Below, one piece after another: positions 17,172 through 37,888 of a stretch of DNA of 64,000 bases. This DNA comes from Candidatus Bathyarchaeia archaeon. GTDB taxonomy: Archaea > Thermoproteota > Bathyarchaeia > Bathyarchaeales > Bathycorpusculaceae. A program made the translations under genes and the position numbers. The stretch's first letter is position 1. The number at the start of each line of letters is the position of its first letter. Below the pieces are notes generated by a model. The model made no database searches and had not been told where the DNA came from. It saw nothing but the letters and a program-made list of their open reading frames with translations. The stretch covers positions 15,879-79,878 of the forward strand of contig JBMFKI010000004.1 in the NCBI GenBank assembly GCA_049972525.1. The letters run 5' to 3'.

Positions 17172-18872
17172 ATGGAAAAACACACGCATGACATAGTTAT
17201 AGTTGGCGCTGGACTTGCAGGGTTAAGGGCTGCAGTTGCCGCCGCGGAAAAAAGTAAGAAACTGGATATAGCAGTGGTGTCGAAGCTTCACCCGATACGC
17301 TCGCATTCAGTCTGTGCGCAAGGCGGAACAGCGGCTGTAATGCGTGAAAAAGACTCCTTTGATTTGCATGCTTTCGATACTATTAAAGGTGCAGACTACC
17401 TCGCAGACCAAGATGCCGTGGAATTCTTTGTGAGACAAGCACCTAAAGAAATAATTTTAACAGAACATTGGGGGCTGCCATGGAGCAGAACAGCGGATGG
17501 AAAAATAGATCAACGCCCATTCGGCGGTCACAGTTTTCCAAGGGCATGTTTCGCGGCGGACATGACTGGCTTCCATGAGATGCACACGCTTTATGGAAAA
17601 GCAACATCATATAGCAACGTGAAATTTTATGACGAATGGTTCGCAACCTCGCTAATAGTTGAAGATAACACAGCGGTTGGTCTGACAGCGATAGAGCTTA
17701 AGACTGGCGAGATGCATGCATTCAAAGCGAAAGCAATTGTGATGGCTACTGGAGGACACGAGCGCATATATGAATTCACAACATTTTCCTACACAACAAC
17801 TGGCGACGGAATGGCGATGGCATACCGCGCGGGAGTGCCACTTGAAGACATGGAGTTCGTTCAATTCCACCCAACAGGCTTGGTTCCGTCAGGAGTGCTA
17901 ATCACAGAGGGCGCTAGGGGAGAAGGGGGATACCTACTAAACGGTAAGGGAGAACGCTTCATGAAGAATTATGCTCCAGAGAAGATGGAGCTTGCCCCAC
18001 GTGACGTTGTTTCAAGAGCAGAACAGACAGAAATACTTGAAGGAAGAGGTTTTGAAGGACCATATGGACCATACATAGCCTTGGACTTAACACATCTTGG
18101 CGAGGAAAAAATAAACGAGCGTTTACCGTTAATACGTGAAGTCGCCATAAAACTAGGAGGAGTTGACCCAGTTAAGGAGTACATACCAATAAGGCCAGCA
18201 GCGCACTATTCCATGGGTGGAATAAAAGCCAACATAAAAACAGAAACACCAGTCGCTGGATTATATGCCGCTGGCGAATGCTCATGCATAAGCATCCACG
18301 GCGCAAACAGGCTTGGAACAAACTCGACAGCGGAATGCCTAGTTTTCGGAGCAGTTGCTGGGGAAGAAGCTGCAAAACACGCTTTGTCAACCAGTTTTAA
18401 GGAAATCCCAGGGGAGAAGCTTGCTTTAGAGGAAAAACGTGTCTATGACGGAATTTTGGGCAGTGAGGGGGGAGAGAAAGTTTCGGCTATTAGGGATGAA
18501 ATGCGCCGCACAATGAACGAGAAGGTATGGATTTTTAGAAGGGGCGACCAGCTTGAAGAAGCCCTAAAAAAGATAGGGGAACTTAAAAATCGATCCAAAC
18601 GGATAAAAGTTGAGGATAAACGCGGACCATTCAACAGCGGGCTCACGGAAGCCTTACAGCTCGACTTCATGCTAGACTTGGCAGAAGTCACTGTATACTG
18701 CGCGCTCGCCAGAACCGAGTCCCGCGGAGCACACACACGAAGAGACTATCCAAAAAGAGATGACGCAAACTGGCTTAAACACACATTAGCATACCGCACA
18801 CGAGACGGACCAAGACTCGAGTACATTCCAGTCACAATAACAAAGTGGACGCCAGCTGCAAGAACCTACTAG
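17172..18872 (+). CDS. tfrA: Fumarate reductase / succinate dehydrogenase flavoprotein subunit (TfrA-like)
   Basis: FAD motifs [30 protein letters not shown] and HGANRLG. No membrane-anchor genes are adjacent. Confidence 0.85.
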
Positions 18873-18894
18873 TCATAGGGGGCGTGTAAAGGAC

Positions 18895-20460
18895 ATGAAC
18901 GTTAAAGTTGAAAAAGTTGTTGAGTTTAAAATTCACCGTTACGACCCAGAAGATAAGAGGCATTATGTATCCAAATATAAAGTGCCGATACGCAAGGGCA
19001 CGACGGTGCTTGACGCGTTAAGCTATATTAGGGACAACCTGGACGAAACATTGAGTTTTAGGCATTCATGCAGAATGGGCATATGTGGAAGCTGCGGAGT
19101 CAACATAAACGGAAAACCCATGTTAGCATGCTACACGCAAGTGCTTGATCTAAACTCAGACTCGCTTGAGATCGCCCCACTTTCAAACTTGCCTGTGATA
19201 AAGGATTTAGTAGTGGATACTGAACCGTTCTTTGAAGCTTTCAAGAAAATTAAGACCGTATTGATAAAACCTGAAACAGAACTTGTAAAGATGGTTGAGT
19301 TCGTTCAATCGCCGATAGACCTTAAAAAATACTGGGACTTAACACTGTGTACAAAGTGTTCAATTTGCTATTCAGCATGCCCCGCGGCAATAGATGAAAA
19401 ATTCCTTGGACCCTCAGCGCTAACAGCAAATTACAGGTTCCTCGCAGATTCAAGAGATGAAGGAGCAGATGAAAGGTTAAAACCCATGGCGAATAACATA
19501 TGGCTCTGCACACAGTGTAACTCATGCACGCTCTTCTGTCCGAAACAAGTTGACTGCGCAAGCGCCCTGGTTAATGACCACTGTTTGCTGGTTGAAGCTG
19601 GGAACATTCCAAGAACAGTTAAGGATGTGCTTGAAAGCGTTTACAAATACAATAACCCTATGGGAACGCATCAAAGCAAGAGGATGGATTGGGCTAAAGG
19701 ATTGAACGTTAAGTCTTACCCATTAGTTACTGAAGCTGAGGTCTTACTGTTTGTTTGCTGCTCGAATGCCTTTGACGCTAGAAATCAAGAAACTGCAAGG
19801 ATTACGGCTTCGATACTCGATAAGTTGGGTGTCAGTTATGCAACTTTAGGCTCTGAAGAATGGTGCTGCGGAGACCACATACTAAGGATGGGCGAAAAGG
19901 GATTATTCGAAGTTTTAGCAGAACACAACATTTCAATGTTCAAAAAATTCAATGCCGAAAAAATTCTAACATTGTCACCGCACTGCTACAACACGTTTAA
20001 GAATGATAAGCCATACAGCGAAGCAAATCTAAACGTGCAGCATTACACGCAGTTTTTAGCTGAAGCAATAAGCTCAGGTAAGCTTAAACTTTCAAAAACT
20101 GTTAAAAGGCGAGTGGCTTATCACGATCCATGCTTCCTAGGTAAACGAAACAACATATTTGATGAACCAAGGCGGATTCTGCAGACAATAAACGGTTTAG
20201 AGCTTGTTGAAATGAGAAGAACGAGGCAAAGCAGCTTCTGCTGTGGTGGCGGCGCTGGGAGAGTCTGGACTGAAGAGGCTCCCGCTGAAAAGAGACCAGC
20301 AGTTGAAAGGGTTAAGGAAGCGTTGGAGTTGAACGTTGACACAATAGCAGTAGCGTGTCCCTACTGCATCACAACACTTGAGGACGCCATCAAAGTGTTA
20401 GATGTTGAAGGCAAAATCGCCGTTAAGGATATCCTTGAACTCGTAAAAGAAGCAATTTGA
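18895..20460 (+). CDS. tfrB: Fumarate reductase iron-sulfur subunit fused to an HdrD-like CCG-domain module (TfrB-like)
   Basis: The N-terminal SdhB-type part has CRMGICGSCG ([2Fe-2S]), CTKCSICYSACP and CTQCNSCTLFCP. The C-terminal half has two CCG motifs (WCCGDH, FCCGGGAG) and ACPYC, and is clearly homologous to the HdrD-like protein at 50625..51746. Confidence 0.75.
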   Translation: MNVKVEKVVEFKIHRYDPEDKRHYVSKYKVPIRKGTTVLDALSYIRDNLDETLSFRHSCRMGICGSCGVNINGKPMLACYTQVLDLNSDSLEIAPLSNLPVIKDLVVDTEPFFEAFKKIKTVLIKPETELVKMVEFVQSPIDLKKYWDLTLCTKCSICYSACPAAIDEKFLGPSALTANYRFLADSRDEGADERLKPMANNIWLCTQCNSCTLFCPKQVDCASALVNDHCLLVEAGNIPRTVKDVLESVYKYNNPMGTHQSKRMDWAKGLNVKSYPLVTEAEVLLFVCCSNAFDARNQETARITASILDKLGVSYATLGSEEWCCGDHILRMGEKGLFEVLAEHNISMFKKFNAEKILTLSPHCYNTFKNDKPYSEANLNVQHYTQFLAEAISSGKLKLSKTVKRRVAYHDPCFLGKRNNIFDEPRRILQTINGLELVEMRRTRQSSFCCGGGAGRVWTEEAPAEKRPAVERVKEALELNVDTIAVACPYCITTLEDAIKVLDVEGKIAVKDILELVKEAI

Positions 20461-20571
20461 CAACAAGCTTTCCCAATTTTTAATCTAACTACTTGCAAAA
20501 AGGCGCAGATACATTAATATAACTTATAATACAAATTATATGATTCAATTTAAACTAAGTTTGGAGGAAAA

Positions 20572-22455
20572 ATGATGCACGGCTATGCTGGTCGAGTACT
20601 CCACGTAGATTTAGCAACAGGAAAAACACATGTTGAACCATTAAATGAGGATTACGCAAAAAAATACATCGGCGGAATAGGCTTAGGAATGCGCCTATGG
20701 CTTGACCATTCACAAGCAGGAGTCGACCCATTCAGCCCAGAAAACCCTTTGATTCTAACAGTAGGTCCAATAGCTGGCACCGTCTGGCCCACAGGTGGAA
20801 ATGGACATGCCTTCATTTCGAAATCGCCACAAAGTTTTGGAATAGGTGAATCGAAATCCCACGGCTCCTTCGGTGCTGAAGTGAAAAGGGCTGGATACGA
20901 TGCTGTGATCTTTAAGGGTAGGGCTGAAAAACCCGTTTACGTGTGGATTGACGATGACTCGGTTCAGCTTCTCAATGCTTCGCATTTAATGGGAAAGTCT
21001 CCAGCAGACACAGAAGATGCGATAAAGGATGAGTTGGGCGACTACTACATTCGCGTTGCAGCCATAGGTCCGGCGGGAGAGAAACTGGTTCGAATAGCAT
21101 GCATAATAAATGAAAAGACAAGGGCTGCTGGCAGATGCGGATTGGGTGCCGTTATGGGTTCGAAGAATATTAAGGCAATTGCTGTTCGCGGAACACACGA
21201 TGTCAGCGTCGCGAAGCCAGATGAGTTTCTCGAGTTTGTCAAGGAGTTTCACGAAAGAATGAAAGGCCCAGCCACACAAAAATATAGAACATTAGGTACA
21301 CCTGAAAATGTTCTAGTTCACAACGCTCTACACTGCATGCCAACAAGAAACTATAACAACGCACATTTTGATATGGCGGAAAAAGTAAGCGGAGAAGCCC
21401 TAAACGAAAGGTTTGTGGCGAAAATTATTGGTTGCAGTTCGTGCGCCATGCGATGCGAACATATTGCTGTTGTTCCCGAAGGACCATACAAGGGTGCCAT
21501 GGCTCGAGTTGAATATGAGCCGTTATGGGCTTTGGCACCCTACTGTGGAATAGATCGCCTTGACGCTGTAATTAAGGGAATAGAACTTTGCAATTATTAT
21601 GGGATAGACGCTATAGGCGCTGGCGTTATAGTTGGCTTTGCCATGGACTGCTACGAAAATGGAATATTAACACTGGAAGACCTTGACGGGATAGACGCCA
21701 GATTCGGCAATCATGAAGCCATGGTCAAACTTGTAGAAAAAATGGGCAAACGTGAAGGGATAGGCGACATCCTTTCAGAAGGAGTGAAATTCGCCGCTGA
21801 AAAGATAGGAAAAGGAGCAGAAAAACTAGCACAGCACATCAAAGGAGTGGAAGTTACTGGCTACGACCTTCGATCCCTAAAAACAGCTGCTTTAGGCTTT
21901 GCCGTTTCCTTCCGTGGAGCAGACCATAACAGACATGGAGCCTACGCCTTTGACGTTAAGGGAAAAGTCAACCGTTTAGTTGCTGAGAAGGGTAGAGGAA
22001 GAATGGTTAAAGACATCGAGGACATATACACCATTATCGACTCCTTAATCATTTGCAAATTCTCAAGGGGAACGTACTACAAGGAATTCGAAGACTTAGC
22101 TAAACTTTACACGCTTGTTACCGGCTTCGAAACAACACCACAAGAGATGAAACTTAAGGGCGAAAGGATAAACAACCTTGCAAGGGTATGCAACGTCAGA
22201 GAAGGCTTCAGTAGAAAGGATGACACCCTACCATACAAAGTTATGCATCTTCCAATACCAGATGAAGGACCATCAAAAGGAGCTTATGTAACACAAGAAG
22301 AATTAGACTTGCTTTTAGACGACTACTATGAAGCCAGAGGATGGAACAAAGATGGCATACCAACCGCGGAGAAGCTGAAGGAACTCGCCATGGAAGATTT
22401 GATTCCAATAATTGAAAGAAAAATTGGAAAAAGCGGAGGAAAACTGGAGGAATAG
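20572..22455 (+). CDS. aor: Aldehyde:ferredoxin oxidoreductase family (tungstopterin enzyme)
   Basis: 627 aa. The N-terminus GYAGRVLHVDLATGK...YIGGIGLG is typical of the AOR family, with a Cys-containing [4Fe-4S] region (CSSCAMRCEH). Confidence 0.85.
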   Translation: MMHGYAGRVLHVDLATGKTHVEPLNEDYAKKYIGGIGLGMRLWLDHSQAGVDPFSPENPLILTVGPIAGTVWPTGGNGHAFISKSPQSFGIGESKSHGSFGAEVKRAGYDAVIFKGRAEKPVYVWIDDDSVQLLNASHLMGKSPADTEDAIKDELGDYYIRVAAIGPAGEKLVRIACIINEKTRAAGRCGLGAVMGSKNIKAIAVRGTHDVSVAKPDEFLEFVKEFHERMKGPATQKYRTLGTPENVLVHNALHCMPTRNYNNAHFDMAEKVSGEALNERFVAKIIGCSSCAMRCEHIAVVPEGPYKGAMARVEYEPLWALAPYCGIDRLDAVIKGIELCNYYGIDAIGAGVIVGFAMDCYENGILTLEDLDGIDARFGNHEAMVKLVEKMGKREGIGDILSEGVKFAAEKIGKGAEKLAQHIKGVEVTGYDLRSLKTAALGFAVSFRGADHNRHGAYAFDVKGKVNRLVAEKGRGRMVKDIEDIYTIIDSLIICKFSRGTYYKEFEDLAKLYTLVTGFETTPQEMKLKGERINNLARVCNVREGFSRKDDTLPYKVMHLPIPDEGPSKGAYVTQEELDLLLDDYYEARGWNKDGIPTAEKLKELAMEDLIPIIERKIGKSGGKLEE

Positions 22456-22459
22456 AAAA

Positions 22460-22966
22460 ATGGTTAAAATTCACGAAAGAAAATTCGTCGCTGCAGACCC
22501 AGACAAGTGCGTTGGCTGTCAAGTCTGTGAATACATCTGCTCATTTACAAAAGAGAAGTCCTTTAATCCGCTGAAGTCGCGAATAAGAGTCGTTCGACTG
22601 AATCCTCTGGTGAACGTGGCGATAACTTGCCGATTATGCGAAGACCCCCCATGCGTCGCTGCATGCCCCAGAGATGCCCTAACACAGTCCGAAGAAACAG
22701 GCATAATAATGGTGGACGAAGATAAATGCAATGGATGCGGATGGTGCATTGAAGCATGTGACTACGGGGCAATAATGATACATCCAGAGAAAAAAGTCGT
22801 GTTTGTCTGCGACCTATGCAAAGACAAGGGCGAGCCCCAATGCGTTAAGTGGTGTCCTGAAGAGGCGTTAGACTTTGTTACAAGCGATGTCCTCGCCCAG
22901 AAAGCTAGGATTGCGGCCACAAAGAAGCTTTTCCAAGAAGCAATGAAAGTAGCAACTAGAACATAA
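22460..22966 (+). CDS. Multi-cluster 4Fe-4S ferredoxin (AOR-associated electron-transfer subunit)
   Basis: Four Cys clusters: CVGCQVCEYIC, CRLCEDPPCVAACP, CNGCGWCIEAC, CDLCKDKGEPQCVKWCP. The ATG at 22460 follows a GGAGG 5 nt after the aor stop. The track ORF begins at 22412, inside aor. Confidence 0.75.
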   Translation: MVKIHERKFVAADPDKCVGCQVCEYICSFTKEKSFNPLKSRIRVVRLNPLVNVAITCRLCEDPPCVAACPRDALTQSEETGIIMVDEDKCNGCGWCIEACDYGAIMIHPEKKVVFVCDLCKDKGEPQCVKWCPEEALDFVTSDVLAQKARIAATKKLFQEAMKVATRT

Positions 22967-23537: not shown

Positions 23538-24992
23538 TTACCTTTCCACGGTTTTGAGCAGTTGCTTCTTGCTGTTGTAGATTTCTATTGTCAGTGGCAT
23601 CTGCCCAACCGCAAAATGCGTGGCGCATCCGAAACATGGGTCGTAAGCCCTAAAAGCCATCTCAACCATGTTAAGTATTGTATGGTCAACTTTGTCGCCG
23701 TGTATTAAGCCCTTAGCCGCATTCCTAATAGACATGTTTATGGATGGACTGTTATTAACCGTTGCAACTATCAGGTTCACATCCTTAATAAGCGCATTCT
23801 CATCCAAAACGTAATGGTGAATCAATGTCCCCCTCGCTGCTTCAACTACACCTATGCCCTCTCCTGGTTCGCCTGGCTTGTTGCGCACATCCTTGCTCGT
23901 TATTTCAGGATCTTTGCTCAATTCTAAGGCTCTCTCGGAAGCGTAAAGCAATTCGATAAGCCTAGCCCAATGATAGGCAAGCGTTGAGTGAACTGGTTTT
24001 CCGCCAAGCGTCTTATACATGAATTCATACTCCTCCTGCGCCAGTGGCGTTGCCATGCCATCTGCAGCGTTAAGCCTTCCAAGAGGCCCAACACGGTACG
24101 CACCACTTTCCGGACCGTCAATGAAGCCTTTCCATCCAATTTTCTTCAAATATGGAAACTTAACGTAAGTCCATTCTTCAACATGTTCACCAATGTGATC
24201 AAGATAGTCTTTAGCTTCGAACTTCAAGAACTCCATGCCATGCGGGTCTACCACCCTAATCTTGCCATCGTAAAAGTTCACATTGTTGTTTTCGTCAACT
24301 AACCCCATGTAATAGGTCTTCAGCGTGTACGCGTCGCTCCTAATCAAGTCGACGTATTTGCTGTTCCCGAGAACAAGGTCGTGGAAAAGCTTGAGCGAAA
24401 ACTTTGCAAAGTTCACAGTTGAAGAAGCCATTTTCTCAATTTCGCTCCGTTCTTCTTCGCTTAATGGCTTAGAGATTCCGCCTGGTAATCCACAGACAGG
24501 ATGCGTGGCTTTTCCGCCAATTATTTCCGTTATTCTTTGACCATAAGCCCTATGCTTTATGACTTCTTTGCCGATGTCTAATCCAGCCTTTTCAATGACG
24601 CCTATAATATTTCTTTTTTCCGGAGGAGCGTCTGGTCCGACTATAAAGTCTGGTCCACCCAAATAATAGAAGTGCAACGTGTGGTCATAAATAAAATAGC
24701 CGCAGTACATGAGCTCCCTAAGTTTTTTAGCCGCTGACGGTGGATCCACGTTGAACGCTGCATCTAAGGTTTTTGTTCCAGCCATGTGATGAGCTACTGG
24801 ACATACGCCGCAGATTCTACTCGTCAAAAGTGGCATATCCTCAGCTTTTCTTCCTATGCAAAACTTTTCGAAGCCTCTAAGCTCTGGAATTTGCATGTAA
24901 GCATTTTCCACTTCGCCTTCATCGTTTAGGAATATGGCTATTTTCCCGTGTCCTTCAAGCCTTGTTATCGGGTCGATGATAACCTTTTTCAT
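23538..24992 (-). CDS. mvhA: F420-non-reducing (Mvh-type) [NiFe] hydrogenase large subunit, copy 1
   Basis: RLEGHGKI, N-terminal Ni ligands RICGVCPVAH, C-terminal DPCFGCATH followed by a cleavable extension. Confidence 0.9.
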   Translation of the reverse strand: MKKVIIDPITRLEGHGKIAIFLNDEGEVENAYMQIPELRGFEKFCIGRKAEDMPLLTSRICGVCPVAHHMAGTKTLDAAFNVDPPSAAKKLRELMYCGYFIYDHTLHFYYLGGPDFIVGPDAPPEKRNIIGVIEKAGLDIGKEVIKHRAYGQRITEIIGGKATHPVCGLPGGISKPLSEEERSEIEKMASSTVNFAKFSLKLFHDLVLGNSKYVDLIRSDAYTLKTYYMGLVDENNNVNFYDGKIRVVDPHGMEFLKFEAKDYLDHIGEHVEEWTYVKFPYLKKIGWKGFIDGPESGAYRVGPLGRLNAADGMATPLAQEEYEFMYKTLGGKPVHSTLAYHWARLIELLYASERALELSKDPEITSKDVRNKPGEPGEGIGVVEAARGTLIHHYVLDENALIKDVNLIVATVNNSPSINMSIRNAAKGLIHGDKVDHTILNMVEMAFRAYDPCFGCATHFAVGQMPLTIEIYNSKKQLLKTVER

Positions 24993-25972
24993 TTTCTCAT
25001 AATCCTCCTTCGCAGAATTGAAGCTGGCAAAGCGTACATGTAAAACGTGCCAATTGGATCCTTTATTTGGCTGATCAGTTTTTCAACTTCCTCCTCTGTG
25101 TACTTCTCTTTCTCTTCCTCTAACCCCAATATGGAAGCTAAAGCGCTTATCATCGCAGCTCCCTGTTCTGGCGAGTTCGGGCATGGTCCACCGCATCCTG
25201 TGCATGGCATGTTAGCCTTTAGGCATCTTGCACTACATCCGCCTCTCGTGGCTGGTCCCATGCATATTATTCCCTGTTCAAGCAAGCATCTTTCAGGGTC
25301 CGGTGTCTTTTCATAAACCCTATATATCTTAGAGATTTTCTTGTTTTCTTTCTTTCTTGGACATTCATCACAAACCGATTTAAGTGGTGCTAGAACAGAA
25401 CCTTTAGGTGGCAATTCGCCCTTTGCTATAACGTCTAATGCGTAAAGTGTGCGTTCAACAGCTGGTGGGCAGCCCGGAACATAATAGTCCACGTCCACTG
25501 TTTGGTCAAGTGTTCTAACTGTATCGTAAAATTCTGGAATTTCTAATTCGCCTTCTTTAACAGTTACTTTTGGTTTCGGTACAGTTCCATTTGGGTTTAC
25601 CGTTGAAAATGTTGTTTTGTAAACTTTCTCGAAAATCTCCTCTTTATTGGTCATGTTTGCCAGTCCTGGGATACCGCCAAGTTGGGCGCAAGCACCATAA
25701 GCAACTAAAAATTTTGATTTTTGCCTTAGAAGTTTAGCCATGTGTTCTTGTTCGCTGTTGCGTATTCCACCGTTGAAGAAGCACACGTCTATGTATTTGT
25801 CTGGCATTTCTTCGACGTCTTTGTATTTTATGTCCATTGCAACTGGCCAGAAAACTATGTCAGCTAATTGTAAAACGTCCAGTATTTTCTCGTTTATGTC
25901 TAAAACTGCGATTTCGCAGCCTCCACAACTTGCAGCCCAATAGAATGCGAATTTCAATTTTGCTTTGGCCAT
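24989..25972 (-). CDS. mvhG: Mvh-type [NiFe] hydrogenase small subunit, copy 1
   Basis: FYWAASCGGCEIAVLD, GCPP, and distal cluster cysteines CMGPATRGGCSARCLKANMPCTGCGGP. It overlaps mvhA by 4 nt. Confidence 0.85.
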   Translation of the reverse strand: MAKAKLKFAFYWAASCGGCEIAVLDINEKILDVLQLADIVFWPVAMDIKYKDVEEMPDKYIDVCFFNGGIRNSEQEHMAKLLRQKSKFLVAYGACAQLGGIPGLANMTNKEEIFEKVYKTTFSTVNPNGTVPKPKVTVKEGELEIPEFYDTVRTLDQTVDVDYYVPGCPPAVERTLYALDVIAKGELPPKGSVLAPLKSVCDECPRKKENKKISKIYRVYEKTPDPERCLLEQGIICMGPATRGGCSARCLKANMPCTGCGGPCPNSPEQGAAMISALASILGLEEEKEKYTEEEVEKLISQIKDPIGTFYMYALPASILRRRIMRK

Positions 25973-25973
25973 C

Positions 25974-26867
25974 TTAATTCTCTCCTTTTTGAATTTGATT
26001 TAAAAGTTCGGATGGTTTCACTCTAAGCTCGTTTAATCCAAGTTCTTCTGGTGAAAAGCCCATGGCTAAGCCTAACAGTTGAGGATAGTGCAGAACTGGT
26101 ATGCCAAACTTTTCGTTAAAGGCTCTCTCTATTCTAGGCTGGTTCATATCAAACATCATGTGGCAGAAGGGGCAAGCCGTAATTAACGCTTGAGCCTTCA
26201 CTGCCCTAACGTGGTCAAGTTTTTCTTTAGCCATCTGGAATGGAACCTCCTCGTTTACGCCGATTATTGGATTTCCGCAGCATTCAGTTTCATCCATATA
26301 GTCCAAACACTGCGCACCAGTAAGCCTAATCAAGTTTTTAAGCAGCGTTGGATTTTCTGGGTCGTCGCCGTGTTTAACATATTTTGCTGGACGAACGAGG
26401 TGGCATCCTGAATGTTGGGCTACGGAAAGATTAGTTAATGGTCTCTTAACAGAATCCCTTATCTTCTCAAAGCCAACATCCTCAGCGAGCACATGAACAA
26501 GATGTTTAACTTCTATTGTCCCTTTGAACTCCATGCCAATTTCCTTTAAATGAGCGTTCACTTCTTCCCTCAGTTTCTTATCTTCTTTCAACATTTTGTT
26601 TGTTTCATTTAAACTGCAGAAGCATCCATTACAGAGTGTTAAAATGTTCAAGTTCTGTTGTTCTGCTACACAGAGGTTGCGTGCAGCCAAAGTTATCATT
26701 AAGTCATGGTTTATTGCGTCCATTGGGTATCCACAACAGTTAAACGTTGGCATCTCGACCAATTCTACGCCTAATTTGTCGAGGACTTTTCTCGCAGAAA
26801 TTTCGTAGCTCGAAAGTCTATATGGGATAACGCATCCCAGAAATATCAGATATTTTGGTTTTGACAT
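25974..26867 (-). CDS. hdrB: Heterodisulfide reductase subunit B-like (two CCG domains), copy 1
   Basis: FLGCVIPYR...NCCGYP...CNGC and SGCH...ECCGNP...CPFC, which are two complete CCG cysteine motifs. Confidence 0.85.
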   Translation of the reverse strand: MSKPKYLIFLGCVIPYRLSSYEISARKVLDKLGVELVEMPTFNCCGYPMDAINHDLMITLAARNLCVAEQQNLNILTLCNGCFCSLNETNKMLKEDKKLREEVNAHLKEIGMEFKGTIEVKHLVHVLAEDVGFEKIRDSVKRPLTNLSVAQHSGCHLVRPAKYVKHGDDPENPTLLKNLIRLTGAQCLDYMDETECCGNPIIGVNEEVPFQMAKEKLDHVRAVKAQALITACPFCHMMFDMNQPRIERAFNEKFGIPVLHYPQLLGLAMGFSPEELGLNELRVKPSELLNQIQKGEN

Positions 26868-26868: not shown

Positions 26869-27423
26869 TCAGCTTTTCACCTTCTCAAAAGTTTTCACGT
26901 TTTCAAGTATTTTCGAGGAACCTGTAACTTCGAAGATTTTTGCAATTTCTTCCAGATTCGGCTTTGGCAACGGTGGAAGCCCAAGCTCCATCCTCTTTTT
27001 GTGGCGTGATTCCAAAATCTCGTATACATAGCCTCCCTTTAGAAGGTTAGATGCGAGTTCCCTGTAAACTAATGGCATGGCGCCTTTTTCCTTTACTGAA
27101 AGGTTTCGCAAAACACGTACTATGCCAGCAATTTCCACTCCTTGGGGACAGTGGTCAACGCATGTGAAGCATGATGAACATAGCCACAAGGCTTTATCCA
27201 GCAAAAGCCTATCCTTCAAGCCTAATTGGACCATGCGGGCTATTCGGCGTGGTCTGTAAAACTCGCTGAATCTTGCTATGGGGCAGTCAGCCGTGCATGT
27301 GCCACATTGGAAGCAAAGCATTATTCTTTCTGCACCATGCTTCTTGCTCATTTCATACTTAAATTTCAGGTTCATTTCCTCAGCTTTTATAACACTCGGA
27401 ACATATTCCTGTGCTTCACTCAC
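26869..27423 (-). CDS. hdrC: Heterodisulfide reductase subunit C-like (2x[4Fe-4S]), copy 1
   Basis: CFQCGTCTADCP and CSSCFTCVDHCP. 184 aa, 1-nt spacing to hdrB. Confidence 0.8.
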   Translation of the reverse strand: MSEAQEYVPSVIKAEEMNLKFKYEMSKKHGAERIMLCFQCGTCTADCPIARFSEFYRPRRIARMVQLGLKDRLLLDKALWLCSSCFTCVDHCPQGVEIAGIVRVLRNLSVKEKGAMPLVYRELASNLLKGGYVYEILESRHKKRMELGLPPLPKPNLEEIAKIFEVTGSSKILENVKTFEKVKS

Positions 27424-27859
27424 CTTGTTTTCCTCCCATTTTCAAAGGGTTTGGACCAAGCTTCTTAATCTGTTCAACCATGTCTCGGACTACGGCTGCA
27501 AATTTGTCTCCCTCGCCGGCGGAAACCCATTCCAGCCGCACACGTTCGGGTTCTATCCCAAAATCTTTAAGCACTTTCTTTAATAGCGTTACTCTTCGCA
27601 AAGCCTTAAAATTACCACTAAGATAGTGGCAGTCGGATGGAAGGTGGCAGCCAGCCACCAAAACACCGTCAGCTCCATTTTTCAAGGCTTCTATTATGAA
27701 GGCTGGGTCTATTCTTCCACTACACATAACGCGGATAACACGGATGTTCGGTGGGTATTGGATTCGACTTACACCAGCCAAGTCTGCACCAGCATAGGCA
27801 CACCAGTTGCATAGAAAACCAACAATTTTTGGTTCAAAATCCGTTTTGGCTTCGCTCAT
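27416..27859 (-). CDS. mvhD: MvhD (hydrogenase delta / [2Fe-2S] adaptor subunit)
   Basis: IVGFLCNWCAYAGADLAG...VMCSGRIDP...AGCHLPSDCHY is the canonical MvhD/FlpD pattern. 147 aa. It overlaps both neighbouring genes. Confidence 0.85.
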   Translation of the reverse strand: MSEAKTDFEPKIVGFLCNWCAYAGADLAGVSRIQYPPNIRVIRVMCSGRIDPAFIIEALKNGADGVLVAGCHLPSDCHYLSGNFKALRRVTLLKKVLKDFGIEPERVRLEWVSAGEGDKFAAVVRDMVEQIKKLGPNPLKMGGKQGE

Positions 27860-30800
27860 TTGGCAACCACCTCCATCTCCTTTAAGACAGCCCTAACCTG
27901 GGCGAGAATCTCCTCAGTTGTGAAGTGCCCGAGGGTTATGGCCTTTGTTGGGCATGCTGTTCCGCAGACTCCGCAGCCCTTACACAAGGCTTCAATCACA
28001 TGGGCAACCACTTTGCCATCTTTCTCCTTCATCTCAATCGCACTGTAGGGGCATAGAAATTCACAGATTCTGCATCCACTACATAAATCTTCATCTACAC
28101 TTGCCACGATTCCTTCCATTTCAAGGGCTTTCTTCGAAAGTATTGTGGCTGCTCTTGCTGCGGCTGCACATGCTTGGGAAATGCTCTCCTCAATGTATTT
28201 TGGCGAGTGAGCCATTCCGCATAGGAAGACACCGTCCGTCTGGAAGTCCACTGGGCGAAGCTTCATGTGCGCCTCCAAGAAGAAGCCATCCTTTGTCAGT
28301 GGCACTTTTAGCATTTCGGCTATGCGCTTATTGTCTGGGTTAGGGATGGTTGCGGCACTTAAAATGACGTAGTCTGGCTCCAACTGAACCTCTTGCTTCA
28401 ATACCGGCTCGCAGAAGGAGACTTTCAGCTTTCCGCCCTCTTTTGTGACTTTTGGCTTGCTTTCGTCTGAATAGTTTATGAAGATGACGCCTTTGGCTGC
28501 TGCCTCCCGGTAGTACTCCTCCTTAAAGCCGTAACTCCTAACATCCTTGTAGAGGACGTAAACATCAACGTCTGGGTTAAGCTCCTTAATCTTCAAAGCG
28601 TTTTTGATGGCTTGCCCACAGCATATACGTGCACAGTTGGGGCGCTCCTCGTTCCTTGCGCCAACACACTGAATCATAACAACTTTTTTGGCTTTGAACT
28701 CGCCTTTGGCAATTTTCTCCTCCAACTCGTGCTGGGTCATGACTCTGGGGTCTTCGCCATACAAGTATTCTTTTGGCTTATACTCAACGGCACCAGTTGC
28801 AACAATGACTACACCATGCTCCACCAGTTTTTCCTCGCCACTGCTCAGCCTTATTTTTGATTTGAAGTTGCCGATGAAACCGCTTACCTCCATAACCTCC
28901 GCGCCTAAATAAACGTGGATAAGCTTGTTTTCCATAACAGCCCTAACAAGCCTCTTCAAGTGCTCCTGTGGGTCTTCGCCCTCAAGCAAGTAATAGATTT
29001 TCCTTAAGTGTCCGCCAAGCTCCTTTTCGCGTTCAACAAGGTGAACCTCAAAGCCTTGGTTGGCTAATTCTAGCGCTGCGGTCATCCCTGAGACCCCACC
29101 ACCAATTACGAGTCCTGCTGGAGTGACATTGACTGTCGGGTTTTTCAGCGGTTTTAGAAGCCTCGCCTTTGCGACGACGGAGCGGACGAGGTCTTTTGCT
29201 TTTTCAGTTGCCGCATCTGGCTCGTGCATGTGAACCCAGCTGCACTGGTCTCGGATGTTTGCCATCTCGAATAGGTATGGGTTTAGGCCAGCCTCTCGGA
29301 GGGTTTCTCTGAAAAGCGGTTCATGGGTTCTTGGCGTGCATGAAGCCACAACAACACGGTTTAGGTTGTACTCCTTAATCTTCTCCCTAATCCGCTTCTG
29401 GGTGTCATCTGAACAAGTGTAAAGGTTATCCTCGGCATAAACAACATTCGGAAGCTTTTTGGCGTATTCTACAACTTCTGGAACCCGGACTATTCCGCCT
29501 ATGTTTATGCCGCAGTGGCATATGAAAACGCCTATGCGGGGCTCTTCTTGGCTAACGTCCCGTTCTGGCGGATACTCCTTAACGGTTATGAGCTTGCCAC
29601 GTTCTGGGGCTATTATTGCCATGGCTTTCGCTGCGGCGCCACTCGCTTGGGCAACACTTTCCGGAATATCCTTAGGCGAGCTGAAGGCTCCGCAAACGTA
29701 TATGCCTGGCTTTGAAGTTTCTAGCGGTGTGAAGGTATTGGTTTCGCAGAAGCGGTACTTGTTGAGCTTTATGCCTAAAGCCTTGGCTAGTTTTTCCACG
29801 TCCTTTGGAGGTTGCATTCCGGTGGAGAGCACAACCATGTCGAACTCCTCAACCCGTGGAGTTTCATCCTCTCCAACATAGTGCACAAGCAAGTTGCAGG
29901 TCGCTGGGTCTTCGGTTATGCTGGCAACCCTTGAACGCACAAAATGGATGCCATACTCCTCCTGAGCCCGCTTATAGTAGGCGTCAAACTCCTTACCATA
30001 AGCCCTAATATCCATATAGAAAATCGTACAGTCCAACTTTGTTGGCACGTGTTCTTTGGCTATAATGGCTTCCTTAATGCTGTACATGCAACAAGCAGCA
30101 GAACAATAATTGTTCCCAAGCTGAGCATCCCGAGAACCAACACACTGTACAAAGGCAATTTTTCGTGGAATCTCGCCGTCAGAAGGTCTCAAAACAATCC
30201 CGCCGTAGGGTCCAGAAGCGCTCAGTATGCGTTCGAACTCTATGCTTGTCACAACATTTGCGTATCGCCCATAACCATACTCGCTCTTAAGCCGTGCATC
30301 AAAGGGTTCAAAACCGGGAGCCAAAATCACAGCGCCAACATTTAGAACAATTTCGCTGTCTTTCTGGTCATATTCAACGGCGTTCGCCTTACAAACCTCT
30401 TGACATGTTCTACAACCAATGCATTTTTCGCGGTCTATTTTGAAGCGTAGTGGAACTGCCTGTGGAAATTCGACGTAGACGGCGCTTCTGTCCGTTAACC
30501 CCTTATTGTAGGTGTCTATGGCTTCAACGGGGCATTTTTGTGCACAAAGCCCACAACCATTACATTTTTCCTCGTTTATGTAGCGGCTTCTTTTTCGAAT
30601 CTTCACTTCGAAGTTTCCAGCCTCACCGCTTAAGCCCAGCACTTCGCTGTTCGTAATTAAGGAAATGTTGGGATGCCTCCCAGCAGCAACAAGCTTAGGA
30701 GCCAAAATACACATTGAACAGTCATTTGTTGGAAAAGTCTTGTCCAATTGAGCCATAACACCGCCGATGCTGGGCGACTGGTCAACCATGTACACTTTAA

Positions 30801-30888
30801 AGCCTGAATCAGCCAAGTCTAAGGCCGCCTGTATTCCAGCAACGCCTCCGCCTACAACAAGAACTGCTCCTACTTTTCCTTCAGCCAT
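27856..30888 (-). CDS. hdrA: Tandem-fused HdrA-like flavoprotein (1010 aa, two FAD modules)
   Basis: Module 1: VVGGGVAGIQAALDLA, FPTNDCSMCIL, and an inserted ferredoxin (CNGCGLCAQKCP, CIGCRTCQEVC). Next comes the canonical HdrA N-domain IGVFICHCGINIGG...ASCTPR...DQCSW. Module 2: VIGGGVSGMTAALELA, without the inserted ferredoxin. The C-terminal ferredoxin has CSGCRICEFLCP and CKGCGVCGTACP. Confidence 0.85.
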   Translation of the reverse strand: MAEGKVGAVLVVGGGVAGIQAALDLADSGFKVYMVDQSPSIGGVMAQLDKTFPTNDCSMCILAPKLVAAGRHPNISLITNSEVLGLSGEAGNFEVKIRKRSRYINEEKCNGCGLCAQKCPVEAIDTYNKGLTDRSAVYVEFPQAVPLRFKIDREKCIGCRTCQEVCKANAVEYDQKDSEIVLNVGAVILAPGFEPFDARLKSEYGYGRYANVVTSIEFERILSASGPYGGIVLRPSDGEIPRKIAFVQCVGSRDAQLGNNYCSAACCMYSIKEAIIAKEHVPTKLDCTIFYMDIRAYGKEFDAYYKRAQEEYGIHFVRSRVASITEDPATCNLLVHYVGEDETPRVEEFDMVVLSTGMQPPKDVEKLAKALGIKLNKYRFCETNTFTPLETSKPGIYVCGAFSSPKDIPESVAQASGAAAKAMAIIAPERGKLITVKEYPPERDVSQEEPRIGVFICHCGINIGGIVRVPEVVEYAKKLPNVVYAEDNLYTCSDDTQKRIREKIKEYNLNRVVVASCTPRTHEPLFRETLREAGLNPYLFEMANIRDQCSWVHMHEPDAATEKAKDLVRSVVAKARLLKPLKNPTVNVTPAGLVIGGGVSGMTAALELANQGFEVHLVEREKELGGHLRKIYYLLEGEDPQEHLKRLVRAVMENKLIHVYLGAEVMEVSGFIGNFKSKIRLSSGEEKLVEHGVVIVATGAVEYKPKEYLYGEDPRVMTQHELEEKIAKGEFKAKKVVMIQCVGARNEERPNCARICCGQAIKNALKIKELNPDVDVYVLYKDVRSYGFKEEYYREAAAKGVIFINYSDESKPKVTKEGGKLKVSFCEPVLKQEVQLEPDYVILSAATIPNPDNKRIAEMLKVPLTKDGFFLEAHMKLRPVDFQTDGVFLCGMAHSPKYIEESISQACAAAARAATILSKKALEMEGIVASVDEDLCSGCRICEFLCPYSAIEMKEKDGKVVAHVIEALCKGCGVCGTACPTKAITLGHFTTEEILAQVRAVLKEMEVVAK

Positions 30889-31645: not shown

Positions 31646-33361
31646 TCACCTCTCCATGGCTGTTAAAACCATGGTTAGAATCTGCTCGTTGGAAAGCTTC
31701 TTCATGGTTATGGCTCTTTCTGGGCATCTTGCAGCACACAAGCCGCAGCCCTTGCAAAGCTCCTCGTCCACTTGAGCTACACCCTTCTCATTCTTTTTGA
31801 TGGCGCCAACTGGACATACGACCGCGCAGACGTTGCAGCCCACACACTTGCCCTCGTCAACAACAGCCTTATCGCCCTCGCACAAGTCCATGCTTGCGAG
31901 GCACTCGGCACACGGTCCACATCCCAAACAGCGGAAAGCCTCAAATCTTGCTTGACGCTTCAGCTTTTCAAGATATTCCCTCGCCTCCTCAAAGCTTAAG
32001 TGAGGCTTTTCCAGTGGAGGTTCGTATCTGCGCTCCTTCTTTTTAACGTAACCCCAATTCTTAACCCACGTCGTCTCCTCAATCTTCTCTTCTCTCGCGA
32101 TTCTTGGGTCTTGTCCGCGAAGGTAAAGGTGAATGGAAACCGCCGCTTTTTTGCCTGCTCCAACAGCCTCAATTATGTTTGCTGGTCCAGTAGCCATGTC
32201 GCCTCCAGCGAAAACACCCTTCACGTTTGTTTCCATAGTTGTAAAGTCAACTTTTATTGAAGGCGCTCTTGCCTCTTTGTCTAGGAGTTCTGGCGGCACA
32301 CATGACAATTCTAGAACTTGTCCAAGCGCGGGTATGACCATGTCAACCTCGTACTGATGCTCTGAAAAGCTTATTGGAATTGGCTTTCTTCTTCCGCTTT
32401 TGTCTGGCTCACCGAGCCGCATCCTTAAGCATTCAACAGCCTTAACCTTGCCATTTTCGCCTATTATCTGCTTTGGCGCAACCAAAAAGTAGAATTTAAC
32501 GCCGTCTCTTTCGGCTTCTGCTATCTCATGTGGCAATGCGGGCATTTCCTCGCGTGAGCGCCTATACAATATTATAACTTCTTTTGCACCAAGCTTCTTT
32601 GCGGTTCTCGCCGCGTCTATGGCTGTGTTTCCGCCGCCTATGACGGCAACTCGCTCTCCAACTTTTATTGGCTCGCCGAGCGATATAGCCCTCAAAAAGT
32701 CAACAGCGTTTACTACACCTTCAAGTTCTTCGCCTGGAACGTTCAATTTCATTCCCTTTTGTGTGCCAATTGCAAGGAAAATTGCCTTGTAGCCATCTTT
32801 GCGTAGGCTTTCAAGTGTTATGTCCTTTCCAAATTCCACGCCAGTCTTTATTTCCACGCTCAAATCTTTTATGTAGGCTATTTCATTCGTCACAACAAAC
32901 TTTTCAAGGCGAAAGTTTGGTATGCAGTAGCGCATCATCCCGCCAGGTTCAGCCATCCGCTCAAAAACAGTTACTGGATAACCGAGTTTTGCAAGTTCGT
33001 AGGCTGCTGTTAAGCCCGCTGGTCCAGCGCCTATTATGGCAACTTTTTCGCTGTATTTTTTGGGTATTGGTTCTGGCTTTACGCGACCTTGTTCTCTTTC
33101 AATGTCCGCCACAATTCTTTTTAGTGCACGTATTGCTACTGCTTGGTCAACGTTTGTTCTTGCACATGCGTCTTCGCATGGGCTGAAGCATACGCGTCCG
33201 CAGATTGCTGGGAATGGCATGTCCTTGCGTATGATTTCTACAGCTTCTCTGAATTTGCCTCTTTGAATTAGTGAGACGTATCCTTGAACGTTTACGTGGG
33301 CTGGGCATGCAGAGCGGCATGGCGGTAGTTTCTTTACTTTTGTTTGGTTATTATTTGTCAT
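31646..33361 (-). CDS. GltD/NfnB-like NAD(P)H-binding FAD oxidoreductase with C-terminal 2x[4Fe-4S] ferredoxin domain
   Basis: N-terminus CRSACPAHVNVQGY...ICGRVCFSPCEDAC, then [12 protein letters not shown] and VIGGGNTAIDAA. The C-terminal extension has CLGCGPCAEC, CVGCNVCAVVCP and CKGCGLCAARCP. Confidence 0.8.
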   Translation of the reverse strand: MTNNNQTKVKKLPPCRSACPAHVNVQGYVSLIQRGKFREAVEIIRKDMPFPAICGRVCFSPCEDACARTNVDQAVAIRALKRIVADIEREQGRVKPEPIPKKYSEKVAIIGAGPAGLTAAYELAKLGYPVTVFERMAEPGGMMRYCIPNFRLEKFVVTNEIAYIKDLSVEIKTGVEFGKDITLESLRKDGYKAIFLAIGTQKGMKLNVPGEELEGVVNAVDFLRAISLGEPIKVGERVAVIGGGNTAIDAARTAKKLGAKEVIILYRRSREEMPALPHEIAEAERDGVKFYFLVAPKQIIGENGKVKAVECLRMRLGEPDKSGRRKPIPISFSEHQYEVDMVIPALGQVLELSCVPPELLDKEARAPSIKVDFTTMETNVKGVFAGGDMATGPANIIEAVGAGKKAAVSIHLYLRGQDPRIAREEKIEETTWVKNWGYVKKKERRYEPPLEKPHLSFEEAREYLEKLKRQARFEAFRCLGCGPCAECLASMDLCEGDKAVVDEGKCVGCNVCAVVCPVGAIKKNEKGVAQVDEELCKGCGLCAARCPERAITMKKLSNEQILTMVLTAMER

Positions 33362-33467: not shown

Positions 33468-34058
33468 TTATTCTCGAAGTCTTCCTTCAAGTTTGCTTAC
33501 CCATTTATTGTATTCACGGGCGCCCAACAACTTTTTAAGTTCCTGCTCCAGAGTTAGCGAGTTGTTAGGCTTAATTTCCACAATCCATCCTTCGCCGTAT
33601 GGGTCTTCATTAACTAAGTTTGGCTCATTTTTCAGTTTCTCGTTCACTTTAACTATTTTGCCGCTTACTGGTGCATATAGGTCAAACATGAACATCCATG
33701 TTTCTGCAACGCCGAATGGCTCCATATGACTTATTTCCTTTCCAACAGGTTCAGTCATTATGTTCGCTATGCCTTTCAAATGTCTCTGCGCGTAATCTGA
33801 AACGCCCACTCTAATGTTTCCCTCTGGCGTCACCTGTGCCCATGTGTGCTTTGGCGTGTACAGAAGAAGCTCAGGCGTTAAAAGCAATTCCTTTCGTTTT
33901 TCCGCTGGTATCCCCTCCGCACGCATCAGGTCTTCGAGGCGTAGGCGGATTGCTTCTGAAACGAATTCTGATATGCTTCTGTAGCGCCCCGTTTTGATTG
34001 CTTCTTCAATCTGTTTTATTAGTTCTTGTCTTATGCTTACGGTTTTCCATTCAGACAT
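33468..34058 (-). CDS. Ribbon-helix-helix domain fused to a GcvH-like (lipoyl-carrier fold) domain that lacks the lipoyl lysine
   Basis: N-terminus VSIRQELIKQIEEAIKTGRYRSISEFVSEAIRLRLEDL is CopG/RHH-like. The C-terminus YTPKHTWAQV...VGVSDYAQ...GVAETWMFMFDLYAPVSGKIVKVN...EDPYGEGWIVEIK is GcvH-like. M124 (33693-33695) sits where GcvH has the lipoyl Lys (ESVK). The ATG at 34058 lies 9 nt after GGAGGA. The track ORF starts at TTG 34064. Confidence 0.65.
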   Translation of the reverse strand: MSEWKTVSIRQELIKQIEEAIKTGRYRSISEFVSEAIRLRLEDLMRAEGIPAEKRKELLLTPELLLYTPKHTWAQVTPEGNIRVGVSDYAQRHLKGIANIMTEPVGKEISHMEPFGVAETWMFMFDLYAPVSGKIVKVNEKLKNEPNLVNEDPYGEGWIVEIKPNNSLTLEQELKKLLGAREYNKWVSKLEGRLRE

Positions 34059-34064
34059 TTCCAA

Positions 34065-36475: not shown

Positions 36476-37351
36476 TTAGCCTATTTTGCTGAGCACTGGG
36501 TCTAATTTTACTTTGTGAAATTCAGGTGCAAGCTCTTTTGGATTTACACCCAAGCTTATGCTTAAAAGTTCAGCGTAGTGTATTACGGGTATATTGTATT
36601 CTTCTTTGTATGTTGTTTTTATCAGCATTTGCCCAAGGTCTAACGTTAGGAAACAGAATGGACAAAGCGTTGATATACAGTCGGCTCCAACCCTAGAGGC
36701 GTTAACGATTTTGTCTCTTGCTATGGCTAAAGCCACATCGTCAGCATAACCCCTTAAAAGACCACCGCAACATTTCAGCTTATTCCTATACCAGATGCTT
36801 TCAGCACCTATAGCCTCAACCAAATTGTCGAAGATTTTCGGGCGCTCTGGGTCGTCAAACCTTAGAAGGGCGCTTGGTCTTAGTAGGTGGCATCCAGAAA
36901 AGGCTGCAACCTTAAGTTTGCTCAGTGGCTTCGTTACGTTTTTCTTTAGGTTGTTTACGCCAATATCGTTCATCAAAACTTGGAGGTAGTGCCGCACTTC
37001 CTTGTTTCCCTTAAATTCTTTCCCAACATTTGAAAGGATTTTGTTAACCCTCTTCTTTAGTCCTTGCTTTTCTTTAAGGAGGGTGTTTGCCATCGCAAGT
37101 GATTCGAAGCATCCCGTGCACAAAGTAACGATGTTAAGATCTGCTTCTTCGGCTAGACAGATGTTGTACGCTGCAATTGCCAAGCTTGTTTCTAGGTCTA
37201 TTGACTGTAATGGTGGCGGAGCGCAGCACGTCATTTTTTCCAAATCTACGAGTTCTATTCCAAGTTTTGTTAGGGATTTTCGTGCTGCCAATTCGTAATG
37301 CGGTTGCCGCGCGGGTATCGTGCAACCCAAAAATAAAGCATAGCTCGTCAC
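36476..37351 (-). CDS. hdrB: Heterodisulfide reductase subunit B-like, copy 2 (divergent)
   Basis: FLGCTIPAR...TCCAPP...CTGC (first motif has CCA instead of CCG) and SGCH...KCCGG...CPFC. It is only distantly similar to copy 1. Confidence 0.8.
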   Translation of the reverse strand: MTSYALFLGCTIPARQPHYELAARKSLTKLGIELVDLEKMTCCAPPPLQSIDLETSLAIAAYNICLAEEADLNIVTLCTGCFESLAMANTLLKEKQGLKKRVNKILSNVGKEFKGNKEVRHYLQVLMNDIGVNNLKKNVTKPLSKLKVAAFSGCHLLRPSALLRFDDPERPKIFDNLVEAIGAESIWYRNKLKCCGGLLRGYADDVALAIARDKIVNASRVGADCISTLCPFCFLTLDLGQMLIKTTYKEEYNIPVIHYAELLSISLGVNPKELAPEFHKVKLDPVLSKIG

Positions 37352-37866
37352 TACGTCTCACCCTTCTTAAACTGGATTTTGTCGAACTCCGTTGCCGAAA
37401 GAATTTTTTTCACGGCTTCGACGCCTGCTGGCTTAAGCGGTGGCAAACCGTATTCTGCCCGCTTTTTCTCAAGGAATTTCGACATTTGAACTATGCGCCC
37501 TTCGCTTGCAAGCCCAGCTGCAAATTCCGAGTAGATGTTTGGTATGTTTCCCTCGCGGATGGCCATGTTTCTTAAGGCATAAATTACGTCGGCTACTTCG
37601 ACCTTTTGTGGACAACGTTCTTGGCAGTTATAGCACGAAGAACAGAGCCATATGGCATCGCCGGATAAGACTTCATCCCTTAACCCAAGAAGCGCCAACC
37701 TAATGACTTCTCTCGGATTGTATTTTTCTGTTATTTTTGCCACTGGGCAGCTTGCGGCGCATGTTCCACACTGATAGCATAGGGTTATCGTTTCTCCGCC
37801 AAGTCTGCTAGTAATCTCTTTGGCGAAATTCTTTGCGAATGGTTTCGTTTGCGTTTCCTCTGCCAT
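37351..37866 (-). CDS. hdrC: Heterodisulfide reductase subunit C-like, copy 2
   Basis: CYQCGTCAASCP and CSSCYNCQERCP. 1-nt overlap with hdrB copy 2. Confidence 0.8.
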   Translation of the reverse strand: MAEETQTKPFAKNFAKEITSRLGGETITLCYQCGTCAASCPVAKITEKYNPREVIRLALLGLRDEVLSGDAIWLCSSCYNCQERCPQKVEVADVIYALRNMAIREGNIPNIYSEFAAGLASEGRIVQMSKFLEKKRAEYGLPPLKPAGVEAVKKILSATEFDKIQFKKGET

Positions 37867-37888
37867 AGCGTTTATTCTCCTCTCTGGT

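Follow-up and report, generated by a model that had tools for sequence, protein, structure and literature searches.

Relationship to known HdrA systems

The canonical HdrA of Methanothermococcus thermolithotrophicus (PDB 5ODC) is a homodimer of two identical 650-aa chains with two complete circuits, and in the solved dimer Cys197 of the partner chain completes or ligates the N-domain cluster. Here we describe a fused double HdrA of 1010 aa, encoded at positions 27856-30888 on the minus strand of a 64,000-nucleotide stretch of contig JBMFKI010000004.1 (assembly GCA_049972525.1, Candidatus Bathyarchaeia archaeon; the whole stretch is hereafter called the window). All four domains of canonical HdrA are present, but in one chain and with a single copy of each accessory domain, and the genes for MvhAGD and HdrBC are adjacent. 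Judged from its sequence, the protein is an ordinary member of the known and widespread BamE-type or "type II" fused HdrAs, and it is encoded in a hydrogenase/heterodisulfide-reductase operon of Bathyarchaeia.

Among the fused forms, BamE from the Geobacter metallireducens class II benzoyl-CoA reductase has the same one-chain order: a first thioredoxin reductase-like fold (TrxR1) with a Cys pair, an inserted ferredoxin, an N-domain, a second such fold (TrxR2) and a C-terminal ferredoxin. A 2026 cryo-electron microscopy preprint on the G. metallireducens enzyme calls BamE "a fused HdrA dimer", and assigns bifurcation to the TrxR1 FAD (with Lys280 at N5), while the TrxR2 FAD is described as non-bifurcating or structural and is contacted by a Gln. 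The same preprint places the Cys59-Cys62 disulfide 3.4 Å from the N-domain cluster E3, lets electrons in through the clusters of the C-terminal ferredoxin and through BamF (an MvhD-type adaptor whose winged helix-turn-helix, wHTH, touches the electron-input module), and identifies the inserted ferredoxin as the low-potential exit. The fused HdrA of the window is 51% identical, colinearly over aa 1-1004, to a 1018-aa BamE orthologue of a Geobacter locus (L065), in which bamE is flanked by homologues of BamB (1158 bits to PDB 4Z3W), BamC and BamD on one side and of BamF, BamG, BamH and BamI on the other; BamE Lys280 and Cys59/Cys62 correspond to its K272 and C57/C60. As in the Bam system, a gene for a BamF-like MvhD-wHTH protein adjoins the fused hdrA. 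The partners differ: the Bam complex has BamD (an HdrCB fusion), BamBC (the tungsten reductase) and BamGHI, whereas the Bathyarchaeia operon has separate HdrB and HdrC and an MvhAGD hydrogenase; its BamF-like gene lies upstream, beside an NfnB-like gene, a plain mvhD follows hdrA, and, unlike the BamE system, it has no selenocysteine.

The complementary fusion of HdrA halves was proposed for HdrA3/4 of anaerobic methanotrophic archaea (ANME) by Chadwick 2022 (PMC9012536), "type II HdrA" was defined as a fusion of A6-like and A12-like classes by Lyu 2025, the same halves were mapped in Moorella and Sporomusa HdrA by Kremp 2022, and a 2024 survey recorded numerous fusions of duplicated HdrA among TACK and Asgard archaea. 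Since these accounts and the BamE structure cover both concept and architecture, the novelty that the original prediction (made from the DNA letters alone) implied for a complementary fusion does not stand. The conceptual gain is accordingly small: genomes of ANME, methanogens, TACK and Asgard archaea, acetogens and sulfate reducers already document such fusions, and BamE does so at the structural level.

Like the type II HdrAs (A3/A4) of methane- and alkane-metabolising archaea, the fused HdrA has two TrxR domains per chain and joins an HdrA6-like half (module 1) to an HdrA12-like half (module 2); the two also share the placement of Cys197 and the N-domain in complementary halves, which in type II HdrA has been read as a self-contained heterodimer. 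The type II proteins have been described with FdhB or inactive molybdopterin partners and F420, whereas the partners here would be an Mvh hydrogenase and an NfnB-like protein. A third related group comprises HdrA of Moorella thermoacetica (1487 aa, in MetFV-HdrABC-MvhD), which oxidises NADH, and HdrL of Desulfobacterium autotrophicum. Their N-terminal half consists of a TrxR fold and a ferredoxin and their C-terminal half of N-domain, TrxR fold and C-terminal ferredoxin without an inserted ferredoxin, as in the fused HdrA, with which Moorella/HdrL-type relatives of 1300-1530 aa are colinear. In these longer proteins a GltD/NfnB domain sits within the inserted ferredoxin domain; in the window it is a separate gene (31646-33361).

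Domain architecture of the fused HdrA

The reading frame starts with ATG, is preceded by a Shine-Dalgarno-like GGAGGTG a few bases 5' of it, and contains no internal stops; in the plus-strand reading of 27856-30888 only stops were found, which places the gene on the minus strand. The features of the protein are as follows.

27856-30888, minus: fused double HdrA (BamE-type or "type II" HdrA), from reading frame and translation, HdrA match and BamE identity
29548-30888, minus: module 1, aa 1-447, TrxR-like FAD fold that has neither N-domain nor C-terminal ferredoxin, matching HdrA 146-511/573
30709-30735, minus: FPTNDCSMC, aa 52-60, single copy, with the redox-active Cys pair C57/C60, from motif scan and HdrA alignment
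30355-30588, minus: inserted 2x[4Fe-4S] ferredoxin domain, aa 101-178, from CxxCxxCxxxC motifs, Pfam Fer4 and HdrA alignment
30088-30144, minus: [4Fe-4S] ligands of the module-1 TrxR fold, C249, C262, C266 and C267, aligned to HdrA C386/C399/C403/C404
29119-29547, minus: module-2 N-terminal (MvhD-like) cluster domain, aa 448-590, with Cys 457, 459, 492 and 517, from the match to HdrA 2-153
28114-29118, minus: module-2 TrxR-like FAD fold, aa 591-925, with cluster C741/752/756/757, no Cys pair and no inserted ferredoxin, from HdrA alignment
27859-28113, minus: C-terminal 2x[4Fe-4S] ferredoxin domain, aa 926-1010, from CxxCxxCxxxC motifs and the match to HdrA 568-651

When all PDB sequences were searched with phmmer, the best match was chain 5odc_A, the HdrA of the MvhAGD-HdrABC complex (E 1.4e-226). 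Residues 9-374 of the fused HdrA aligned to 5odc_A 146-511 (TrxR fold and inserted ferredoxin), residues 448-599 to 2-153 (N-domain, 212 bits), and residues 858-1003 to 506-651 (end of the TrxR fold and C-terminal ferredoxin). Because HMMER reports non-overlapping pieces of a target, module 2 (aa 448-1010) was searched separately; it matched 5odc_A 2-235 and 321-651 (E 6.2e-140), and what the alignment leaves out, residues ~236-320, is exactly the inserted ferredoxin. Matches with such E-values lie far outside what chance would give. Where the solved HdrA has FPTNDCSIC, module 2 reads YYLLEGEDPQEH, and the Cys is absent. The motif scan placed the dinucleotide motifs GGGVAG at aa 13 and GGGVSG at aa 596 and four CxxCxxCxxxC motifs, of which two (aa 109 and 156) belong to the inserted and two (aa 936 and 969) to the C-terminal ferredoxin; the CHC motif of the N-domain occupies aa 457-459. 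By alignment, C60 is equivalent to HdrA Cys197, E219 to E356 and K272 to K409.

These results agree with the original prediction in every element, apart from the strand and the exact start of the N-domain. It had claimed two TrxR-like FAD modules, each with its own GGGxxG motif, of which the first carries FPTNDCSMC and the inserted ferredoxin and lacks an N-domain and a C-terminal ferredoxin (as the PDB alignment and the motif scan show), whereas the second has the latter two domains and lacks FPTxDC and the inserted ferredoxin (as its alignment to 5odc_A shows). A canonical N-domain does open module 2, but it starts at aa 448 and not at ~453, as had been estimated. A generic FAD oxidoreductase as the source of module 2 was rejected, because module 2 matches HdrA at E 6e-140 with both its N-domain and its C-terminal ferredoxin included. 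With C60 and the N-domain in opposite halves, the domain map and the homology to BamE bear out an HdrA pseudo-dimer in one covalent chain, asymmetric in its domains, each half having lost what the other retains.

Modules 1 and 2 share only 31-37% identity and must therefore be old paralogues; a recent tandem duplication is ruled out by this value, compared with 51% identity to BamE, together with the existence of split pairs (see below). The whole protein stays below the NCBIfam cutoffs NF041778/NF040770 (HdrA/HdrA2), with 1059.1 vs 1100 bits for HdrA2 and 782.4 vs 1400 for HdrA.

Distribution and conservation of the fusion

The fusion is widely conserved. A word-indexed search gave more than 120 clusters (90%-identity clustering) at 80-97% identity to the fused HdrA, nearly all of 1005-1022 aa, the named ones coming from Bathyarchaeia/Thermoproteota metagenome-assembled genomes of many projects, and when 1.84 billion 50%-identity representatives were searched exhaustively with HMMER, 3,412 matched at E <= 1e-30. 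For the best 150 of these 3,412 representatives, the domains were located piece by piece. The identical six-piece order was found in 66, and most of the other 84 have both halves, likewise with module 1 first; the same colinear protein is seen in about 100 of the 150, around 30 have the same order with an NfnB/GltD domain within the inserted ferredoxin domain (lengths 1300-1530 aa), six have an added C-terminal MvhD, and the inserted ferredoxin is missing in seven.

In a scan of one genome per GTDB species, at least 600 loci were found in archaea and bacteria. The 80 examined cover query residues ~1-1004 at 48-80% identity and come from Bathyarchaeia, Thermoplasmata/Methanomassiliicoccales, Asgard archaea, Chloroflexota, many Desulfobacterota, Desulforudis, Elusimicrobia and others; the cultured Desulfospira joergensenii is among the hosts. 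In 10 loci (L003, L004, L013, L017, L030, L035, L056, L057, L079 and L080) the halves are separate adjacent genes in the same order, of ~430-455 aa and then ~555-620 aa, often next to a fused copy in the same locus. The split genes align to aa 19-412 and ~445-1004 of the fused HdrA, and since they end and begin at aa ~445-448, the fusion junction is a gene boundary. The linker (aa 431-447) is variable among the relatives, yet always present and in frame.

Such split pairs are the one observation that might suggest that the long reading frame is an artefact, an assembly or frameshift error close to the boundary between the modules having joined two neighbouring hdrA-like genes. Against this stand the independent 90%-identity clusters of 1006-1010 aa, more than 120 in number, from many Bathyarchaeia assemblies, the 66 of 150 representatives with identical order (and the same order of halves in most of the remainder), the at least 600 species-level loci, most of which span query residues ~1-1004, and the in-frame linker. 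We regard an artefact as practically negligible: the same fusion is kept in hundreds of genomes, which excludes an assembly error and establishes a genuine single reading frame. The original prediction had named such an error, and a module 2 unrelated to HdrA, as what would refute it; neither is the case.

The order of the halves deserves a comment. Module 1 comes first in every tandem form among the 150 best representatives, none of which had the reversed order in the piece-wise census, and also in Moorella HdrA and BamE. This contrasts with the text of PMC9012536 on HdrA3/4, in which the N-terminal half carries the N-domain and lacks Cys197, i.e., the opposite order. The mismatch reflects either a slip in that text or a different class, ANME sequences not being part of the comparison.

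Residue conservation and putative selenocysteine

Residue conservation was evaluated in 26 diverse fused HdrAs at 36-56% identity. The module-1 residues C57, C60, E219 and K272 are retained in 25 of the 26, while their module-2 equivalents are relaxed (K762 in 18, E723 in 19) and the residue matching BamE Gln768 is variable. Both four-Cys sites of the TrxR folds (C249/262/266/267 and C741/752/756/757) are invariant (26/26), the Cys residues of the N-domain and of all ferredoxins are invariant or nearly so, and the two TrxR folds are equal in overall conservation. Among the Bathyarchaeia relatives, K762 and E723 are invariant.

In 17 bacterial fused-HdrA loci (listed: L023, L028, L030, L031, L033, L041, L044, L045, L048, L059, L066, L073, L074, L076, L077 and L080), the position of C60 (Cys197) is occupied by an in-frame TGA (FPTNDCSM*IL). 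This codon probably specifies selenocysteine, in agreement with U197 reported for M. maripaludis HdrA; read in this way, it explains that these bacterial genes appear split in naive gene calls.

The operon of the fused hdrA

The fused hdrA is the third of eight tightly packed minus-strand genes, separated by spacers of 0-8 nt or overlapping. The seven others are, in the order of transcription:

31646-33361, minus: NfnB/GltD-like NAD(P)H flavoprotein with an HdrA-type C-terminal 2x[4Fe-4S] tail, 571 aa
30892-31638, minus: MvhD fused to a winged helix-turn-helix, BamF-like, 248 aa (FlpD and HTH Pfam domains)
27416-27859, minus: MvhD ([2Fe-2S] adaptor), 147 aa (Pfam FlpD E 8e-57; VhuD/HdrA2 C-terminal matches)
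26869-27423, minus: HdrC-like, 184 aa (TIGR03290 E 3.5e-33, below cutoff; Fer4_8)
25974-26867, minus: HdrB-like with two CCG domains, 297 aa (PF02754 twice; TIGR03288 304 bits vs cutoff 345)
24989-25972, minus: MvhG-like [NiFe]-hydrogenase small subunit (VhuG model E 8e-69; PF01058)
23538-24992, minus: MvhA-like [NiFe]-hydrogenase large subunit (VhuA model E 3.8e-134; PF00374)

The start of mvhD overlaps the stop of the fused hdrA, and the genes for MvhD, HdrC, HdrB, MvhG and MvhA all lie downstream of hdrA in one operon, an MvhAGD-HdrABC-type gene set. The gene order, including an upstream gene for a ribbon-helix-helix (RHH)-GcvH-like protein, is repeated in a second Bathyarchaeia genome (L001).

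The BamE identity of 51% and the adjacent BamF-like adaptor might suggest that the fused HdrA is the BamE subunit of an aryl-CoA (class II benzoyl-CoA) reductase rather than part of an Mvh/Hdr complex, and a gene of the aldehyde:ferredoxin oxidoreductase (AOR) family with a ferredoxin is found at 20572-22966. We consider this very improbable. None of the Bam partner genes (BamB, BamC, BamD, BamGHI) has a homologue in the operon, which instead encodes HdrC, HdrB, MvhD, MvhG and MvhA. The nearby AOR gene lies on the other strand and its product scores 437 bits to ordinary AORs vs 245 bits (a partial match) to BamB; as it is closest to ordinary aldehyde:ferredoxin oxidoreductases, the pair was rejected as BamBC.

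Geobacter BamF and the MvhD-wHTH protein align over their full lengths (30% identity, E 3e-30), which makes the latter more probably an adaptor than a regulator; a plain redox-sensing transcription factor is disfavoured, BamF being a structural adaptor according to the preprint. In archaeal loci L002-L004, L011-L013, L017 and L056, the MvhD-wHTH gene sits between two hdrA-type genes.

The NfnB-like protein shares 41% identity with the GltD domain located inside the inserted ferredoxin domain of the 1300-1530-aa fused HdrAs. These Rosetta-stone fusions suggest that the NfnB-like subunit is a working partner of the fused HdrA and most likely acts at its low-potential exit, and by its gene content the operon is the "split" counterpart of the Moorella/HdrL-type HdrA with inserted GltD. 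The value of the locus is thus a local one: the abundant sediment Bathyarchaeia pair a BamE-type fused HdrA with an Mvh hydrogenase, HdrBC and an NfnB-like/BamF-like pair, and the operon offers a concrete, testable wiring for the coupling of H2, NAD(P)H, ferredoxin and disulfide in an uncultured acetogen-like archaeon.

Proposed electron path

From what is established here (the map of domains, the ligands of the cofactors, the pattern of conservation, the operon, and the homology to BamE and the solved HdrA), we infer how the two halves would pack, which flavin would bifurcate, and which partners and substrates would take part. The fused HdrA probably reproduces the HdrA dimer within one chain, with one complete circuit for bifurcation. 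The halves are complementary because the Cys197 equivalent (C60) is found only in module 1 and the N-domain only in module 2, and a single complete circuit is supported by the asymmetric conservation, the TGA at the C60 position and the BamE structure. By homology to BamE, the halves would then be packed like the two chains of HdrA, and the path would branch at the TrxR1 FAD.

Electrons from the MvhAG hydrogenase would enter via MvhD docked on the arm formed by the module-2 N-domain and C-terminal ferredoxin, and would be received by the module-1 FAD, the predicted bifurcating flavin. The high-potential electron would leave by the module-1 TrxR cluster (C249/262/266/267) to HdrC and HdrB, where a disulfide would be reduced, whereas the low-potential electron would pass the C57/C60 pair and the module-2 N-domain cluster into the inserted ferredoxin domain and from there to ferredoxin and/or the NfnB-like NAD(P)-binding subunit. 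The module-2 FAD is predicted to be non-bifurcating and mainly structural.

The original prediction went further and held that the fused tandem "hard-wires" the direction of bifurcation, which we do not uphold. The asymmetry leaves one complete circuit per chain and so would fix wiring and stoichiometry (one MvhD arm, one ferredoxin exit) but not the thermodynamic direction, and HdrA-type modules are treated in published accounts as either bifurcating or confurcating.

Several observations weigh against an intramolecular dimer with one circuit. An AlphaFold 2 model, built from a shallow alignment (35 sequences at 80-97% identity), was weak (mean pLDDT 64, pTM 0.63), all of its cluster-binding segments having pLDDT < 50; with this model, Foldseek retrieved HdrA chains first (5odi_A, E 2.6e-44, target TM 0.67), these being single-chain matches from a library without BamE. 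The structural support from BamE comes from a preprint, and the partners differ (BamD/BamBC/BamGHI vs HdrBC/MvhAGD). HdrA, HdrB, HdrC, MvhA and MvhG of the operon all fall under their NCBIfam equivalog cutoffs. The operon encodes two MvhD-type adaptors vs one canonical docking arm; the two input modules may be alternatives to each other, or the second may serve module 2. Finally, K762 and E723 are both present in module 2 of this fused HdrA, so that its sequence would permit a second active flavin.

The last two points lead to a reading in which both flavins are catalytic, with two bifurcation sites in series or in parallel and with the NfnB-like protein and the BamF-like MvhD-wHTH supplying in trans the entry arm that the module-2 flavin would otherwise miss. 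It would account for the K409/E356 signature in module 2 (K762/E723, invariant among the Bathyarchaeia relatives), for the invariant module-2 four-Cys cluster and the overall conservation of module 2, which equals that of module 1, and for the second MvhD-type adaptor and the resemblance of the NfnB-like tail to the HdrA C-terminal ferredoxin; Lyu 2025 also suggests two flavin-based electron bifurcation reactions for type II HdrA. We nevertheless find it unlikely. Module 2 lacks a Cys pair, a partner N-domain cluster and an inserted ferredoxin, and therefore any visible low-potential exit. Across the family its K/E signature is relaxed (18-19 of 26), BamE keeps the Lys by sequence although its second FAD is reported as non-bifurcating and Gln-contacted, and the Rosetta-stone fusions put the GltD domain at the inserted ferredoxin of module 1, not at module 2. 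A bolder version, which we regard as improbable, is a two-input Hdr machine in which H2 would feed in via MvhAG-MvhD at the canonical arm, NAD(P)H would enter or leave via the NfnB-like flavoprotein, the tail of which would, with the BamF-like MvhD-wHTH, rebuild in trans the arm missing from module 2, and both flavins would be redox-active; if true, two bifurcation or confurcation events would be coupled in one complex.

Neighbouring genes and other redox clusters in the window

The upstream gene for the RHH-GcvH-like protein (33468-34064, minus) encodes an RHH domain joined to a GcvH-like one; 106 nt separate the gene from the operon, and its position is kept in L001. The lipoyl-Lys of the GcvH-like domain is replaced (ETWMF instead of ESVKA), and with this replacement and the RHH DNA-binding head a role as lipoate carrier (sHdr-style) is unlikely; the protein may be a regulator.

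With its three HdrA paralogues, which are of two types, the window forms an "Hdr island". A second Mvh/Hdr cluster (36476-42703, minus) comprises mvhG, mvhA, a gene for an HdrA-MvhD fusion, hdrC and hdrB; the fusion (807 aa) is HdrA2-like (785 bits, below cutoff). A third redox cluster (45807-54200) encodes NfnB (470 aa), an NfnA-like protein, a TrxR-like flavoprotein (314 aa), an HdrD-like protein (Fer4_8 and CCG), a 415-aa protein resembling a free arm of HdrA C-terminal ferredoxin and MvhD, and, in divergent orientation, an HdrA-MvhD fusion of 793 aa.

Two further loci complete the picture. On the plus strand, 17172-22966 contains a TfrA/TfrB-like thiol:fumarate reductase pair, in which TfrB has CCG domains, and after it the ordinary aldehyde:ferredoxin oxidoreductase and a 4Fe-4S protein. 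On the minus strand, 42833-45643 encodes a 936-aa fusion protein, in which an ADP-forming acetyl-CoA synthetase (CoA-binding, ATP-grasp) is extended at its C-terminus by a GNAT acetyltransferase domain.

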